Source: an uncultured delta proteobacterium
GTDB taxonomy: Bacteria > Myxococcota_A > Polyangia > Palsa-1104
Length of the DNA: 64,000 bases
Direction of reading: 5' to 3'
Assembly: GCA_963785725.1 (NCBI GenBank)
Contig: CAWAWS010000003.1
Span: 160,001-224,000 of the forward strand
The stretch's first letter is position 1. The number at the start of each line of letters is the position of its first letter. Below the pieces are notes generated by a model that saw only the letters and a program-made list of their open reading frames with translations, had not been told where the DNA came from and searched no databases. Positions 15,686-60,990 of the stretch are shown here, piece by piece. The translations under genes and the position numbers were made by a program.

Positions 15686-15810
15686 GAGCGCGCAAAGCGC
15701 GCGTCGGCCGCGAGTGCGGCCGTGGGGAGGCTCATTGGGCTGTGCCCAATGAGGGGTGCTTGCACCCTTAGATCGAGACGCCTTAAATCAGCTTCGCTGA
15801 TTTAAGGCGT
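15686..15810. repeat. Five-hairpin structured intergenic element, copy 1
   Basis: Stems GCGCGC/AAA, CGGCCGC/GAGT, CTCATTGGGC/TGT, GGGTGC/TT and a perfect 15-bp ACGCCTTAAATCAGC/TTC stem. Homologous to 33647-33811. Confidence 0.8.
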
Positions 15811-16167
15811 GCAGATGTTGAACTCGTTGCCGTCTTGATCTTGGAACGTGACGCAGCCGGTGCCGTACGGGCAGTTGGCGCCGCCGTCGGGGCACTGCGT
15901 GTAGCACTGGCTGTTCACACAGATGGACGAGAAGTTCGATAGATCTTGCGGGCAGTCGGTGTCGACGGTGCAGCCGACGGTGCACAAGTTGCCGGTGAAG
16001 CCGGCCGAGACCGGCAGCGTCGTGCCCGAGCAGACCGTGCCCTGATCGCACACGTCGCCGGGCTGACACGACTCATAGGGCTCATCGACCGCGACGGTGC
16101 TGCCACCGCCGCCGCCGCAACCGAGGACCGAGAACGCCAGAGCAACTACGAACGTCAAGCGAGTCAT
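15802..16167 (-). CDS. Small cysteine-rich lipoprotein
   Basis: VLGC lipobox, Gly linker, Cys-rich body, AGGAG RBS. Confidence 0.85.
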   Translation of the reverse strand: MTRLTFVVALAFSVLGCGGGGGSTVAVDEPYESCQPGDVCDQGTVCSGTTLPVSAGFTGNLCTVGCTVDTDCPQDLSNFSSICVNSQCYTQCPDGGANCPYGTGCVTFQDQDGNEFNICTP

Positions 16168-32082: not shown

Positions 32083-32367
32083 TACTAGGACAAACCCGCA
32101 TCCCGCTGAATGTTCAGCTGTGGACGAGGCCGCCAATCAACAATCAATAGGCGCAGTTACACGAGCGACACCGAAGGAGCGCGCGCGCCGTCACCGAAGC
32201 TTAGCGACATGTAGGCAAGAGAACGTGACGATGATCTTTTGAAGGCACTCAGAAATTCGCCGCGCCGCGCGCCACCCGATGCGCGCAACCCTGCAAAATC
32301 CCTCACGCTGGAAATGGCCCGGCGCGTGCTCTTACGACGAAGACGCGCAGCGGAGGTCTCATTGGAA

Positions 32368-33645
32368 ATGCGTACACTCTTGTCGGTCTTATCGCTCGGG
32401 CTCCTCGCACCATTGGCGGCCTGCAATGGCCAACAGCTCGGCGGCCAATTGGTCAAGTCGCGGCAGTCGCGCATCTCCGCGGCCAGCGTCGACCCGAGCG
32501 TCGTCGCGGCGCAGGCCGCGGACAACACGCAGCTGGCCTTCGATGTTTATGCGCAGCTAAAGGGGACGCCCGGCAATCTGTTCTTTTCGCCTTATAGCAT
32601 TTCGTCGGCGATGACGATGGCGTGGGCGGGCGCGGCCGGCAATACGGCGACGCAAATGGCGAGCGCGCTCGAGCTCAATCAGTCGCCGGCGAACGTCTTG
32701 GGCGCGTTCAATGCGCTCGACGCGGCCTTGGCAAGTCGCGGTCAGTCGGGCTCGAGCGAAGGCGGCGGTCCCTTCCAGCTCAATGTCGTCAACGCCATTT
32801 GGACCCAACAAGGCGCGCCGCTCGAGGCGCCGTTTCTCGACGCGCTGGCCGAGAATTTCGGCGCCGGCGTGCGCACCGAGAAGTTTTCGACCGCGCCCGA
32901 AGCGGCCCGCGCCGACATCAATGCCTGGGTCGACGACAATACCGGCGGCAAGATTCCGACGCTATTGCAGCCAGGAACGGTCACCTCCGATTCGCGCCTG
33001 TTTCTGACGAACGCGGTCTATTTCGATGGCAGCTGGGATTCGGCGTTCGACGCGCAAGATACAAAGCCGGCGCCCTTCAATGCGCTCGATGGAACCACGC
33101 CGACCGTGCAAATGATGAATCAAACCTATTCGGGCAGGTATTCCCAAGGCACGGGCTGGCAAGCGATCGATCTTCCTTACTCGAACAACGCTCTGACGCT
33201 GACCGTGATTGTTCCGGATATGGGACAATTCGCGTCGATCGAGACGCAGCTGTCGGCCACGTTCTTGGCCGGCGTCCTTGCCGCGGAAGAGCAGGATCAG
33301 ATTACGCTCGGCCTGCCGAAGTTCACGGCGACGACGAAGGCCGATTTGGTGCCGACCTTCAAAGCGTTGGGACTGACTGACGCCTTTACCAGCTTGGCCG
33401 ACTTCTCGGGTATCGACGGCGCCAAAGATCTGGCGATTTCGACGATCGTCCATCAGGCCGTCATCGACGTCGACGAGAAGGGCACGAAAGCCGCAGCAGC
33501 GACGGCAATCGGCATCGGCGCCACGTCGGGAATGACGACGCAAAAGTCGGTTACGCTGACCGTCGATCGCCCGTTCTTCATTGTCCTGCGCGATATTCCC
33601 ACCAATACCGCGCTCTTCGTCGGTCGCATCACGCAACTGCAATGA
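32368..33645 (+). CDS. Serpin (serine protease inhibitor), lipoprotein
   Basis: LAAC lipobox, NLFFSPYSI, NAVYF.G.W, EKGTKAAAAT hinge, DRPF..LFVGRI. Confidence 0.95.
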   Translation: MRTLLSVLSLGLLAPLAACNGQQLGGQLVKSRQSRISAASVDPSVVAAQAADNTQLAFDVYAQLKGTPGNLFFSPYSISSAMTMAWAGAAGNTATQMASALELNQSPANVLGAFNALDAALASRGQSGSSEGGGPFQLNVVNAIWTQQGAPLEAPFLDALAENFGAGVRTEKFSTAPEAARADINAWVDDNTGGKIPTLLQPGTVTSDSRLFLTNAVYFDGSWDSAFDAQDTKPAPFNALDGTTPTVQMMNQTYSGRYSQGTGWQAIDLPYSNNALTLTVIVPDMGQFASIETQLSATFLAGVLAAEEQDQITLGLPKFTATTKADLVPTFKALGLTDAFTSLADFSGIDGAKDLAISTIVHQAVIDVDEKGTKAAAATAIGIGATSGMTTQKSVTLTVDRPFFIVLRDIPTNTALFVGRITQLQ

Positions 33646-33646
33646 C

Positions 33647-33811
33647 GCTAAACCAGGGTTCGCAATTCTCGATCGCTTCGCGCTCGAGAATCGCGCCCTG
33701 ATTTAGCCTCGATCAATGAGGGCGTGCCGCCCTCCCCGAATGGGCAAAGCCCATTCGGGTCTTCTCCCTGCTCTCGGCGCGACTCCGCGCCGACGCGAGC
33801 TTCGCTCGCTC
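33647..33811. repeat. Five-hairpin structured intergenic element, copy 2 (inverted relative to copy 1)
   Basis: GCTAAACCAGGG...CCCTGATTTAGC, CTCGATC linker, then GAGGGCG, CCCGAATGGGC, CGGCGCG/ACTC and GCGAGC/TTC stems. Confidence 0.8.
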
Positions 33812-33954
33812 CAAAGTCCCGGCCTATCGGGAATTACGATCGGCCATTTAGGCCGGACGATTGGCCGCGATCCAAGTCACGCCGCGGTAAAGGTTACGTA
33901 AAGACCGCCAATAAATTCGCCCTTCGCTGCGTCTGTTCGAGCAATATGAGCGCA

Positions 33955-35826
33955 ATGAAGGTTGGGCCTCTTTTCCTCGCTCTCGGCTGCTGCGCATTGA
34001 CAGGCTGCGCCGCCAGCTTCCCGCTGCCGATGACGGCGGCGCAATTCGCCACTTACGATGCGACGATGGCCGGACCGGCGCTGGTCGCTTATCTCGGTCA
34101 AGCCGACGCGTCGCCGACGGTTTGCGACATGGGCGCCAAAGGCCCGCACGTCGCCGCGCTCAGCGAGGAGCTGCGCGACGCGCTCGTGCGCGGCCTGACT
34201 GATGGCAAGATCGAGCCCGACTTATGGAATCGCTGCGCCAAAGCCGTTCTGCGCAGCGCGCCGCGCGACGACGCCGCCTCTTTCATCGACGCGGTCGGCA
34301 AAGGCTATCGCACGCTGATGCGAAGCAGTGATTTCGAGACGTCGGTGGTGTTGCAAAAGCGTCTACAGGCCATGGAGCAGTTCTATATCGATCGCAAGAA
34401 TCAGCTCCAAGGTCACGCGGCAGTCGACGATAAGCTCATCGCCGATCTGCGTAAGGCGCTCGCCAATCATCGCTTGGGGCCGATCGCTGCGCAAATGGGC
34501 GAAGACTTGGTGTCGGCGATCGATCTCGAGCACGGACTGTGGATGGGACGCCCGGTCGACGTGCCGCTCATCGATACCATCTATGCGCAAAAGGACGAGA
34601 AGACGTTATTGCGCTTCGGCAATCGACTGCCTTCGGCGGAGCTGCGCGACGCGGCGCGCCGGCGCGTCGTGCGATTGCATATCGCGGCGTCGCCGTTCCC
34701 CGAAGTGCGCGCGCAAGCGGCGGCGATCGAGGAGATCGTCATGAAAACCGGCGTCAATGCCATTTCATTGACGGCGAATCCGATTTTGCGTGGCTGGATC
34801 GATACCAATAAAGTGCCGATGCGCGGCGTGCTCGTGCGCCAACAATTACAGCAACAGACGGCGACGCTGCTCGGTTATAGCGGCGATCGTCCGGGCGTCT
34901 CGGTGTTGCCGGAGCTGAAGCTGCGCGGCGCATTGCTCGTTCAAGCCAAGGATATTTCGCAGCCGATTACGCTGTGCGCGCCCGGCGCGCTCGATCCGAC
35001 GCCGTGCATCTCCGTGCAGAGCGTCAAGCTGGAGAATCCCGCCGCTTATCTCGATAAGGGCGGCGCCTTTCATTTCGTCGAGCACATTTATATGCGCGAC
35101 GCCGTCAATCTGACGACGATGCACGATAAGTTCGTCTTGCCGGTGAGCATTGGCGGTCAGCGGCTTTGCTCGTTCGAGTGGCAATTGTATTTCGAGCGGC
35201 CCGCCGATCTCGTCTTCAGCGGATCGCAAGCGGGCGCCAATGGGCCCAATCTCGGCGTCGCCGTCGACTATCGCGATCCATTGCGATTCATTTATACGGT
35301 GGCATCGCGAACCGTGCCCTATTTGGCCGTCGTCGAGCGCGCCGATGCCTCGCTGTTTCACGTCGTGAGCCGCGGCGCGCCCGGCGAAAGCGGCAGCGCC
35401 GGCAGCGATGGCGCGACCGGGTCGAGCGGCAGCGAGTGCGGCGACGGCGGCAACGGCGGTGACGGCGGTCCCGGCGGCGACGGCGGTCCCGGCGGCAACG
35501 GCGGCGATATCGCGGTCAATATCGCGTGCGGCGCGATCAGCTGCCCCGACGTCGTCGCGCTCATGCGGCAAACGATCGTCAGCGTGGCCGGACCGGGCGG
35601 CGCGGGCGGTCCGGGCGGCAACGGCGGCGCCGGCGGCTCGGGCGGCTCGGGCCGCTCGCCGTCGACGCACACCGACTCCGACGGCAACACCGTCACCGAC
35701 GATCCCGGCTGCAGCGCCGGCTCCAATGGATCATCAGGCGCGAGCGGCGCGAGCGGCGCCGACGGACCGCCAGGCCTGCCCGGCCACACGCGGTTCACGG
35801 TCGTGCCATCGACGCCGCGCGCCTAA
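33955..35826 (+). CDS. Hypothetical lipoprotein with C-terminal interrupted collagen-like Gly-X-Y repeats
   Basis: LTGC lipobox; three G-X-Y runs separated by short Cys-containing spacers. Confidence 0.8.
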   Translation: MKVGPLFLALGCCALTGCAASFPLPMTAAQFATYDATMAGPALVAYLGQADASPTVCDMGAKGPHVAALSEELRDALVRGLTDGKIEPDLWNRCAKAVLRSAPRDDAASFIDAVGKGYRTLMRSSDFETSVVLQKRLQAMEQFYIDRKNQLQGHAAVDDKLIADLRKALANHRLGPIAAQMGEDLVSAIDLEHGLWMGRPVDVPLIDTIYAQKDEKTLLRFGNRLPSAELRDAARRRVVRLHIAASPFPEVRAQAAAIEEIVMKTGVNAISLTANPILRGWIDTNKVPMRGVLVRQQLQQQTATLLGYSGDRPGVSVLPELKLRGALLVQAKDISQPITLCAPGALDPTPCISVQSVKLENPAAYLDKGGAFHFVEHIYMRDAVNLTTMHDKFVLPVSIGGQRLCSFEWQLYFERPADLVFSGSQAGANGPNLGVAVDYRDPLRFIYTVASRTVPYLAVVERADASLFHVVSRGAPGESGSAGSDGATGSSGSECGDGGNGGDGGPGGDGGPGGNGGDIAVNIACGAISCPDVVALMRQTIVSVAGPGGAGGPGGNGGAGGSGGSGRSPSTHTDSDGNTVTDDPGCSAGSNGSSGASGASGADGPPGLPGHTRFTVVPSTPRA

Positions 35827-58194: not shown

Positions 58195-58503
58195 CGCGAG
58201 CGACTCCTCCTGCCGAATCCGCAAACGGGCGACAGCATCGCGTGAGCGGCGTCACTTTGGCAATAGCCGCATTTCCGCTAACGGCTTCACACGTCGGCGA
58301 TATTCGTCGGTTATCGTTGCTTCGTCCTACGCTGGCGGCGCGCACTCTCACCCGTCATCGATATCGCATACCGATTACTCATATTCGCGATCGTTGGCGA
58401 TATGACAAAGCGCGATTGGCGATTGATGGCGATTACAAATGTTCGATCGGCGAGGGCGGCAATCCCGAGGAGCCGCTGGCGCAAGGTGTGTCGGAGGTCG
58501 TCA

Positions 58504-58532
58504 ATCCTGCGCTGCCGAGGACAGCGTAGGAT
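58504..58532 (-). terminator. Hairpin downstream of the di-heme oxidoreductase gene
   Basis: ATCCTGCGCTG/CAGCGTAGGAT inverted repeat 14 nt after the stop codon. Confidence 0.5.
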
Positions 58533-58545
58533 CGTGCTCGCCGGT

Positions 58546-60990
58546 TTAGAGTGTAGCCAAGAAGGCCAGCAGCGCCGTTCGTTGCGTCGCGGTCATGTTG
58601 ACGAACGCCTGCTGCGCATTGGCGCCTTCGCCGCCGTGCCACAAGATGGCTTCTGTCAAGCTGCGCGCGCGACCGTCGTGCAGATAGGCTTCGCCGCCGC
58701 TCACGCCCGCCGTCAAACCGATTCCCCAGAGCGGCGGCGTACGCCATTCCGCGCCCGACGCGATGCCTTCCGGCAGATTGTCGGCGAGCCCGACGCCCAT
58801 ATCGTGCAGCAACAAGTCGGTATAGGGATGAATCGTTTGGCTGCGCAATTCGGTCTTGGGCGCGAAGGCGCTCGTCGTCAACGTCGCCGTATGGCACGAC
58901 GCGCAGCCGGCGCTGGCAAAGAGCGCCTCGCCCGCCAGCGCCGTCGGATCGTCATAGCTGCGACGCGCGGGAACGCCGAGCAGCCCGACATAACGGACCA
59001 GCTCGTCGACCGCCGCGTCTTCGATCGCCGCCGCGCCGTTGTCACAACCGGTCTGCGCGCTGCCGCAATCGAGCGTCGCGAACCCCGAGCTCTTGACGCT
59101 CATATCGCGATTGAGCGCGGTGACGATCTGATCATTCAAGCTCGCCTGCGCCGCTTTCCAGCCGAAGCGACCCATCCGCGGCTGTCCCGTCGTCCGATCG
59201 GTCACGACCGACATACGACCGGAGATGCCGTCGCCATTGGCGTCATTGACGTCGACCATGGCCGCGATCGCGCTCTCCGGCACCGCTTCCAACAGTCCCA
59301 AGCCGACCAATTGCGGCGTATTGCGCATCGAATAGTAGCTGGGAATGGCGCCGCTACCGGAATACTTCGGGCGCTGTAGCTGATACGCCGTTCCATCGGC
59401 GAACGCGCCGTTTTGCGTAATCCAGCTGTTGATATTGGCGCTGCCTTCGGAGCTGCCATTCAAATTGAACGGCTGCAGCTGCGAGCCCAGCTGCGGGTTG
59501 GGCGTGACCACCCCGCCCGCGACAGTGCCGACTTTGACCGACGTCGTCGTCAGCGTCGCGCCAATCGCGCCCGGCAAGGCGCGACCATTGTTGACGTGAC
59601 AGGTCTCGCAGCTCTGCACGACATAATTGCCGCCGATCTTGTTCATTTCGTCGGTAAAGACAGGATTGCCCGGCTCCGAATGCGTGCCGTCGAGGAAGTT
59701 GGTGTGGAACAGGCGACGTCCTTCGACCCACGGCTGCGCGTTATTGGGCGACATATTCGTCGCCATTTGGATGAAGCGCAGATCGGGCTCGTTCGAATAG
59801 GGATAATTGAGCGTCGTCGCGCCGCCGGTCAACCCGATCGGATCCATCGGATAGGAGTCGTTATTCGAGCCTTCGCCGATGAAGGGCTGAATCCCGCCGC
59901 TGCCGACCACATACAACATGACGCTCGAGTAGTAGTTGAAACGATCGTCGAACGGCGCCGCCAAGAAGATACCCACCTCTACTTCCATACGATCGCCGAT
60001 TTGAATCGCCCGATTCTCTTTCGGGTTCGTCGTAATCGTCGCCGTATAGAGGTAATCATTCACGGTCGTAAAATCGGCGTTGTAGAAGTATTCGGCGACG
60101 GTGGTAATGCCGCGAAAGAACGCGCGCACGTTGGGCGCGTCTTGCGGATGAATCGTATGCAGGTTGATCGTGATCGAATTGCCGCCTTTGGCGACCGTGT
60201 CGATGATCTCGAGATAGTGCGTGCGATCGACGAAATAGAACGGCAGAAAGTGCTCGTAGATATGAAAAACGGCCTCGCGCGCGTGGCGATCGCGCACGCG
60301 GTCACCGACCGTCGTGACGATGGCCGTGCCGATGTCGGTGATGGTCGCGGGCTCGGGCGTCGTCGCGCTGTTGAAGAGCGGCACGATCGTCCCGCTCAGG
60401 TCGGTGCCGCCGGTCGTCGGTCCGGCCGTGATGATCGGCGTCGGATAGGGCGTGCCTGTGGGCGCGGTCGTCGTCGTCGTCATGTCGGGGCTCGTCGCCA
60501 TGTCGGCGCTGCCGCCACCGCCGCCGGCTGTCCCGCCGCCGGCCGCACCGCCGCCGCCGGCCGCACCGCCACCGCCGGCGCTGCCACCACCGCCGCTGCT
60601 GCCGACGCTCAGATCGGGCGGCGCCGACACGCTGCCGCCTTGCACGTATTCGGCGGCCGGCGAGTCATGCGCGCACTGACAGCTCAAGTCGTAATACGTG
60701 AAGTTGTAATCGACGACGGTGCCGATACTGAGATTGCTCAACGTATATTGATTGTCGTTATTGGGCTCGACCGTCATGCGGATATTGAGCTGCTGCCCGC
60801 CGTTGACGTGATAATGGATATCCGCCCATAACGCGTTATTCACGAAGAATACCGCCGACGAGCCGACGCCGTTGACGCCGAATCCGGCGGTGGTGTCGGC
60901 GAAGATTTGCGCTTGTTGATCGTCCTTCGTCGGGCCGCAGCCCGCCAGCCAACAGAAGGCCATCGCCATCGCCATACGCTGCAGAGACAT
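58546..60990 (-). CDS. Di-heme oxidoreductase (DUF1111/DHOR) lipoprotein with N-terminal CBM56-like module
   Basis: LAGC lipobox; WADIHYHVNGGQQLNIRM..Y.FTY; CETCH, CASCH, GRFGWKA, DLLLHDMG, WRTPPLWG, YLHDGRA. Confidence 0.88.
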   Translation of the reverse strand: MSLQRMAMAMAFCWLAGCGPTKDDQQAQIFADTTAGFGVNGVGSSAVFFVNNALWADIHYHVNGGQQLNIRMTVEPNNDNQYTLSNLSIGTVVDYNFTYYDLSCQCAHDSPAAEYVQGGSVSAPPDLSVGSSGGGGSAGGGGAAGGGGAAGGGTAGGGGGSADMATSPDMTTTTTAPTGTPYPTPIITAGPTTGGTDLSGTIVPLFNSATTPEPATITDIGTAIVTTVGDRVRDRHAREAVFHIYEHFLPFYFVDRTHYLEIIDTVAKGGNSITINLHTIHPQDAPNVRAFFRGITTVAEYFYNADFTTVNDYLYTATITTNPKENRAIQIGDRMEVEVGIFLAAPFDDRFNYYSSVMLYVVGSGGIQPFIGEGSNNDSYPMDPIGLTGGATTLNYPYSNEPDLRFIQMATNMSPNNAQPWVEGRRLFHTNFLDGTHSEPGNPVFTDEMNKIGGNYVVQSCETCHVNNGRALPGAIGATLTTTSVKVGTVAGGVVTPNPQLGSQLQPFNLNGSSEGSANINSWITQNGAFADGTAYQLQRPKYSGSGAIPSYYSMRNTPQLVGLGLLEAVPESAIAAMVDVNDANGDGISGRMSVVTDRTTGQPRMGRFGWKAAQASLNDQIVTALNRDMSVKSSGFATLDCGSAQTGCDNGAAAIEDAAVDELVRYVGLLGVPARRSYDDPTALAGEALFASAGCASCHTATLTTSAFAPKTELRSQTIHPYTDLLLHDMGVGLADNLPEGIASGAEWRTPPLWGIGLTAGVSGGEAYLHDGRARSLTEAILWHGGEGANAQQAFVNMTATQRTALLAFLATL

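Follow-up and report, generated by a model that had tools for sequence, protein, structure and literature searches.

Two copies of a hairpin element in the window

The window is a stretch of 64,000 nucleotides (G000:C3:160001-224000) from a source genome of 8.9 Mb with 68% GC that is 88% complete. It holds two copies of a multi-hairpin element, each at the 3' end of a gene, and a core-less remnant. The features are as follows.

15686..15804, minus strand: copy 1, of subfamily T1, consisting of the left end, a shortened H5 and the core; no right end remains
15688..15767, minus strand: core of copy 1, with H4 (15754-15767), H3 (15731-15753), pyrimidine linker, H2 (15705-15722) and H1 (15688-15702)
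15771..15776, minus strand: TCGATC linker of copy 1, which opens the core
15778..15810, minus strand: H5 of copy 1, a perfect 15-bp stem holding the TAA at 15802-15804
15802..16167, minus strand: host gene of copy 1, 121 aa, Cys-rich, N-terminus lipoprotein-like by eye
32239..33645, plus strand: host gene of copy 2, a serpin (PF00079), with its TGA 3 nt upstream of the element
33647..33707, plus strand: H5 of copy 2, in which the left end (33647-33658) pairs with an internal inverted copy (33696-33707); branched interior
33649..33850, plus strand: complete copy 2, of subfamily T2, with 198 bp between two TA and the whole set between C and G
33651..33675, plus strand: left terminal inverted repeat (TIR) of copy 2, matching the right repeat at 16 of 25 positions (hand count)
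33709..33809, plus strand: core of copy 2, with TCGATC (33709-33714), H4 (33718-33734), H3 (33735-33759), pyrimidine linker, H2 (33775-33792) and H1 (33795-33809)
33824..33850, plus strand: right TIR of copy 2 and TA
58499..58548, minus strand: T1 remnant lacking the core, with the left end and a portion of H5, at the TAA of an 814-aa ORF (58546-60990)

A sequence-only reading of the window had described an element of five hairpins present in two copies. All hairpins, loops and linkers that it quoted were found in place in both copies, and H5 of copy 1 indeed spans the last codons and the TAA of the upstream gene (15778-15810). The TAA at 15802-15804 doubles as the stop codon of this gene and as the left end of copy 1, and the outer 6 bp of the stem are host codons paired with their inverted copy. 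The 121-aa product gave no Pfam or NCBIfam match. The docking on stop codons was thus seen for copy 1, whereas copy 2 starts 3 nt after the serpin TGA. The end that had been set for copy 2 at 33811 was too short, the right TIR having been overlooked: the element runs about 40 nt further to a conserved right end at 33850 (GATCGGCCATTTAG at 33838-33851). Copy 2 belongs to a young subfamily with five near-identical copies elsewhere in the genome (85-99% identity), and copy 1 is an older copy whose right end is gone. Young T2 copies outside the window are those at C22:49040, C22:84169 and C3:386908. A possible decayed right end of the remnant lies near 58437-58449.

Minimum free energy folding gave five stems for both copies, with z-scores of -8.47 (RNA) and -8.90 (DNA) for copy 1 and of -9.75 (RNA) and -9.95 (DNA) for copy 2; none of 200 shuffles was as good in either case. 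Comparison with Rfam 15 matched no described family, with no hit in the window at the gathering threshold and none at E<=1 in 14 loci. No intrinsic terminator, with a stem ahead of a U run, was found on either strand in the region of copy 2 (33560-33960).

A dispersed family that sits on gene ends

The element is far more frequent than the two copies in the window had suggested. In the source genome, 26 copies were detected by blastn and nhmmer and 27 by a covariance model of the core, in addition to short remnants. Intact copies start with C-TAAAYCAG and finish about 40 nt past H1 with GATCGGCCATTTA-G. The element is short (198 bp plus TA), non-coding, dispersed and intergenic, as is a MITE. 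The TIRs, with 16 of 25 positions matching in copy 2, are clearer in the end types T3, T4, T5, T7 and T10, and type T6 has none. The left flank is C in all 43 typed copies having both ends found, next to 34 further typed copies in which no right end was recognised. TA stands at the right end in 21 of the 23 copies whose search pattern did not demand it, and the outer flanks are varied.

In 13 of the 16 copies that have both a core and a recognisable left end, this end provides the stop codon (TAA or TGA) of the gene upstream. For CTAG sites located outside coding interiors, the corresponding figure is 22.7% (p 1e-6, with gene calls from a custom codon-bias script). CTAG itself occurs at a density of 0.28 per kb. 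Furthermore, a gene's 3' end is directed towards the element in 29 of 30 copies, and where the neighbouring genes are in tandem, 16 of 20 copies lie on the strand of the upstream gene (p 0.012). The association with lipoprotein genes was a coincidence of the window, since the other copies flank genes of all kinds. Next to one copy (G000 C24:131046-131172) lies a second dispersed repeat with short CGCTCAC-type units, which occurs on at least 15 other contigs.

Orthologous loci in the congeners were found without the element. The syntenic sites of two copies, one on contig C26 and one at the end of cheB, are empty in 4/4 congeners. Two more upstream genes are without the element in one of the four congeners each; the orthologue of the copy 1 host gene, found in one of the four (G004), ends with neither hairpin nor element. 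The flanks of copy 2 are not syntenic in the three genomes with a match. As the congeners are only 76-85% identical to the source genome, they are too distant for a TA duplication to be read from an empty site. A search for paralogous empty sites within the genome gave none for 16 copies. At the cheB copy (G000 C5:221953-222100; L031, L141), the C-terminus of the protein differs from that of all four congeners where H5 was perfected, and cheB may have gained codons from the element.

The core is conserved in relatives

The core runs in the order GATC, H4, H3, pyrimidine linker, H2, GAC and H1. With the covariance model it was detected in 11 of the 14 remaining family genomes (with as many as 54 copies) and in three of the four genomes of the sister family (up to 67 copies, in G021). 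A sample of 150 genomes from the class gave 21 with the core; several weak matches among them keep only H4-H3, and some are possibly due to chance. A phylum-wide sample of 150 genomes gave two weak matches. No core was found in the complete-looking relatives G003 and G010.

The compensatory stem changes first seen between the two copies hold in a large alignment. In 105 aligned copies, 95.9% of 2538 cells are paired, with 443 two-sided changes; none of 500 shuffles reached this value, and slid controls gave 39-51%. This alignment was fitted to the model, and an unfitted alignment of 27 copies was 90.7% paired. Loops and linkers are conserved across families. Of the five stems described, H1 to H4 are conserved as such, whereas the sequence of H5 varies with the left end. 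Both strands fold alike. G-U and A-C combinations are about equally frequent (31 vs 35), so that G-U pairs are no commoner on the strand of the sequence-only reading than on the opposite one. Swaps between G-C and C-G account for 304 of the 441 two-sided changes in the core (sequences counted, not events).

The unit of end, H5 and core forms inverted doublets in G005 and in one metagenome contig. Among 84 GTDB stretches containing the H2 20-mer, most were chance matches or a repeat of Wenzhouxiangella; the true copies were in records titled Myxococcales, Polyangium and Polyangia. The repeat in question is of a GTGGGAG type, is very frequent in a Ca. Wenzhouxiangella MAG (L045-L113) and holds the H2 hairpin without the remaining core. 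Spread by phages or plasmids was considered and rejected: the sole viral match was a chance match in coding sequence, and plasmids gave one 40-bp match.

Group II introns were met at two copies. In a metagenome contig (L127:2008 onward), an intron (Rfam RF02001, RT downstream) begins 5 nt behind H4, inside the conserved GATC motif and on the strand opposite to that of the sequence-only reading; we take it to be of group IIC. Directly behind a T5 copy (L472:440-530, G021) lies what looks to us like the 3' end of another group II intron. Group IIC introns insert behind stem-loops according to PMC7923331, and the core may serve as a landing site for them.

One core between the ends of unrelated elements

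The flanks of the core vary between genomes, and several of the end types could be assigned to autonomous insertion sequences. Type T3 is the right end of three IS630 elements (L212, L293, L295). Type T5 forms both ends of the IS630 element L504, which is 68% identical to the IS630 of the source genome, and type T11 (L521) the ends of the IS630 element L221. Type T4, with CTAG repeats, forms both ends of an IS5 element (L410, NF033581); T4 copies were found only in the relatives G005 and G019. Type T6, with no TIR, is flanked by TCAG repeats, as seen in a filled and empty pair (L253 vs L476), and the core is therefore not tied to the ends of DDE elements. In every typed copy the right end belongs to the family of the left end.

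Cores can be almost identical between different ends. T3 and T6 copies share cores identical at 99/101 and 98/101 positions, the former in different genomes. A tree of the core rejected a single clade for T3, T4 and T6 (p-AU 0.0013, 0.0037 and 0.0032) and did not reject one for T5 (p-AU 0.26). It was built on 101 columns, with 42 of 83 branches open, stems that evolve non-independently and end labels set by hand; its 'T10' group lumps two end types, and the T10 result was not used. The two copies of the window have a common end family, yet their cores lie in separate parts of the tree.

Nested insertions at CTAG were found in four forms: an IS701 element at a left end (L189), a T4 element at the right end of another copy (L008), a T6 element inside the H5 of a T10 copy (L253 vs L476) and two end types in tandem (L370). 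In G002, T3 and T4 ends hold another conserved folded interior (L229, L187, L367-L385). These MITEs are a second case of one interior common to several end types.

A cognate of the T1 and T2 ends was sought in several ways. No autonomous element with such ends was found by motif in the source genome or in viral contigs. The 14-mer of their right end gave seven matches in 400 other genomes of the class, five in tmRNA and two by chance. These ends partly resemble those of T5 and its IS630 elements (L504/L500), and an exact cognate was not found in the 400 genomes. The IS630 (C33), ISAzo13-like, IS481-like and IS701 elements of the source genome were rejected as cognates on account of their different ends. 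Among 59 loci of autonomous IS or Y1 genes, two matches to the core were obtained, one in an adjacent MITE (L189) and one weak (E 0.009). The autonomous element L500 likewise provides its upstream gene with a TAA.

Some features of the neighbouring elements were recorded in passing. The insertion sequence loci of the source genome (C13:39.6-41.0k, C2:42.1-43.5k, C3:269.4-270.7k and C33:395.9-397.4k) comprise three elements with 3-bp TAA/TTA repeats, presumably ISAzo13-like, and an IS630 with a frameshift and no recognisable left end. Upstream of the T3-type IS630 elements L212, L293 and L295 lies a small divergent gene, annotated in L295 as SOS-response repressor. When the T6 ends (L253, L245-L260, L336-L358; G009, G021) are joined as a circle, the reverse strand shows by eye a promoter-like arrangement of a -35 box, 17 nt and a -10 box. 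IS110-type elements form such a junction promoter on circularisation. No autonomous partner of the T6 ends was found. In G021 (L353:940-1450), a T6-like left end adjoins a small gene with hexamer repeats, the product of which looks like a four-helix bundle by eye.

H5, a probable local fold-back

A stem of at least 8 bp abuts GATC in 82 of the 101 copies with enough flank (four of the 105 were dropped), compared to 4 of 99 control windows. The 3' arm of H5 repeats the left end in inverted form and tracks its changes, which the right end does not (L296, L320). In lone copies H5 extends into host DNA, by 6 bp in copy 1. In the cheB copy (C5) its outer 10 bp consist of conserved host codons and their inverted copy, and the congeners have no hairpin there. 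The autonomous IS630 elements tested have neither the core nor the H5 arm. Since this arm copies the left end, reaches host DNA and is absent from autonomous IS630, H5 is most likely a fold-back of the sequence in front of GATC, be it a left end or host DNA, and is remade locally.

Template switching is a process that can, in a single step, create a stem or repair one (bioRxiv 10.1101/2021.04.15.439925). It would explain both the excess of G-C/C-G swaps in the core and the lack of a strand bias of G-U pairs. The covariation of the core means that pairing is maintained; it is no proof of RNA function, because template switching could also produce such changes. The covariation expected in the sequence-only reading thus holds, and it does not prove selection at the RNA level, with G-U pairs symmetric and a majority of G-C/C-G swaps.

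A probable mobile element with probably exchanged ends

The element most likely belongs to a new MITE family with a structured core that is common to the ends of unrelated IS families. Its predicted status as a MITE is likely: the tests for a MITE that could be run came out in its favour, with the TA duplication as a presumed part. Of the two natures first considered, the non-autonomous mobile repeat fits the copy number, the TA-flanked imperfect TIRs, the empty orthologous sites and the nested insertions. We read the element as a dispersed non-coding MITE of about 200 bp which is moved in trans by an IS630-type transposase and whose core has swapped ends several times, and give this reading a probability of roughly 0.68. 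The repeated swapping is suggested by the position of the four-hairpin core between unrelated ends in relatives.

The process may be pictured as follows. The source genome has about 27 copies, with one young subfamily (85-99% identical) that is missing from the syntenic sites of congeners. A transposase would cut at the TIRs and insert the element at the TA of C-TA-G, duplicating the TA, and a TAG stop codon would thereby be rebuilt as TA plus the A of the left end. IS630 elements are indeed known to duplicate TA (PMC2170065). In relatives, one core is enclosed by ends like those of autonomous IS630 or IS5 elements, or by ends that lack a TIR. Other CTAG-targeting elements would land beside or inside copies, because CTAG is scarce and insertion of a copy produces one on each side; deletion would then leave the core with new ends. 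Template switching would make H5 as an inverted copy of the 5' neighbour of GATC and keep it perfect.

The weakest step of this scheme concerns what the hairpins do. An array behind the stop codon could tentatively be seen to shield or insulate the 3' end of the host mRNA, and insertions there would therefore be tolerated. The orientation of the copies agrees with such a role, 29 of 30 being faced by the 3' end of a gene and 16 of 20 tandem ones lying on the strand of the upstream gene. Against it stand the missing U-tract terminator in copy 2, the G-U pairs that favour neither strand and the T6 copies, which often place their right end and not their left one on the stop codon. For the persistence of the core, shielding of the host mRNA 3' end, as suggested by the orientation bias, is a possible reason, with the odds leaning somewhat against it; help in mobilisation is rather unlikely, and it is similarly doubtful that the core is carried along neutrally, with template switching preserving its fold. 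On a bolder and speculative view, to which we would not give even odds, the core would be a selfish module without an enzyme. It would recruit the ends of whichever CTAG- or TA-targeting transposon is active (IS630 groups, IS5, TIR-less elements), rebuild its fold-back and home to stop codons, and it would be kept throughout the class because its fold works in mobilisation or on host mRNA.

Alternative explanations

The core could itself be the mobile unit, inserting behind a pre-existing hairpin H5 in the manner of group IIC introns, so that MITEs, terminators and gene ends would be its landing sites. An H5 that is almost always present, yet arbitrary in sequence, would be expected in that case, and some copies have a host-made H5 and no TIR (L031, L300, L305, L180, L325), one is an H5-only copy (L392), and T3 and T4 ends also enclose another interior (G002: L229, L367). 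We nevertheless consider this improbable: the empty cheB site of the congeners has no hairpin, young subfamilies are dispersed with both TIRs and with varied outer flanks, the right end is always of the family of the left end in typed copies, and no enzyme gene was seen beside cores among the neighbourhoods read.

A structured 3'-UTR or small RNA under host selection, for which the transposon ends would be relics of its arrival, was the other nature first considered. The pairing of 95.9% of 2538 cells with 443 two-sided changes, far above the controls, speaks for it, as do the loops and linkers conserved across families and the orientation bias. It can hardly be the primary nature of the element, however, because the insertions are lineage-specific and lie beside unrelated genes. 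Orthologous sites do not keep the element, G-U and A-C combinations balance at 31 vs 35, G-C/C-G swaps dominate, the strands fold alike, and the relatives G003 and G010, which look complete, gave none. As a primary explanation, an RNA under host selection is quite improbable.

The sequence-only reading had pointed to REP elements mobilised by RAYT nucleases, and a single-stranded DNA element of REP/REPIN type moved by an HUH (RAYT/Y1) nuclease would account for the C[GAA]G and C[AAA]G triloops and for the inverted pairs of units seen in G005 and in one metagenome contig. H2 alone resembles the GTGGGAG-type repeat of the Wenzhouxiangella MAG, and Y1-like genes occur in 11 of the 14 family genomes. 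As a vehicle, however, this system is very improbable. No PF01797 match (Y1/RAYT) was obtained in the source genome (88% complete) or in G021 with its 67 copies, both incomplete genomes, and none of 30 Y1 loci of relatives holds a core. A core and a Y1 gene lie close together once (L470), and there a usual T5 copy stands on just one side. The foot of the hairpins bears no GTAG tag, and TIRs with TA repeats argue for DDE transposases. On the opposite strand, the stretch that separates H1 from H2 contains a CGTC, a candidate for the CGTC-type tag of published REP families.

Readings as attC site, retron or bridge RNA were dropped on anatomy, as we take these systems to be built, since there is no GTTRRRY box and no linked RT or recombinase, and the hairpins are perfect with no internal loops.

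Comparison with known systems

Several known families resemble the preferred MITE in part. RUP (ascribed to IS630-Spn1), ERIC/IRU and Correia/NEMIS (PMC2229807) are likewise intergenic and non-coding, 100-200 bp long, with TIRs and TA at both ends, and share a possible folded transcript and a possible co-transcription with the upstream gene. The present element differs from them in being GC-rich and in folding into four short hairpins plus a left-end fold-back instead of one stem from 5' to 3' end. With the IS630 family (ISY100, PMC2170065; L212, L221, L293, L295, L504) it has the C-TA-G context and probably the TA duplication in common, and the T3, T5 and T11 ends match autonomous members almost letter for letter; unlike them it has no transposase, and the cognate of its T1 and T2 ends was not found. 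The ends of the IS5 group NF033581 (L410) are like T4, which the window copies do not carry.

The nearest functional analogue would be ssr9 of ISPpu9 (IS110; PMC12288879), also a structured non-coding module that borrows a transposase, from a group of modules that arise from short end sequences. As described there, ssr9 depends on one IS110 enzyme and is a demonstrated RNA, whereas our core goes with the ends of several unrelated families and is known here from DNA. REP/REPIN with RAYT (PMC3733652) are alike in having GC-rich hairpins that often supply stop codons and in forming inverted doublets; the present element has no GTAG tag or linked Y1 gene and does have TIRs and TA repeats. A published multicopy structured intergenic element of a deltaproteobacterium has, judged by its figure legend, a central palindrome that is absent from the core, which sets the two apart. 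No description of the core was found in the main texts of the open-licence literature searched, and the portion consulted of a 2024 review of prokaryotic MITEs (PMC10969869) gives no case of a constant interior with variable ends.

Significance of the element

By the usual description, a MITE derives by decay from a single insertion sequence; its ends stay and its middle drifts. Unlike in usual MITEs, the constant part is here the core and the varying part the ends across IS families. The middle persists across several families of one myxobacterial class, and the ends come from unrelated transposase families. The copies rewrite stop codons and gene ends, as in the changed C-terminus at the cheB copy. 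Such elements will mislead covariation screens for non-coding RNAs, and they offer a test case for the role of MITE interiors and for whether compensatory changes in hairpins arise by selection or by template switching. If the fold is selected, the core would be a new kind of cargo that hops between transposases.
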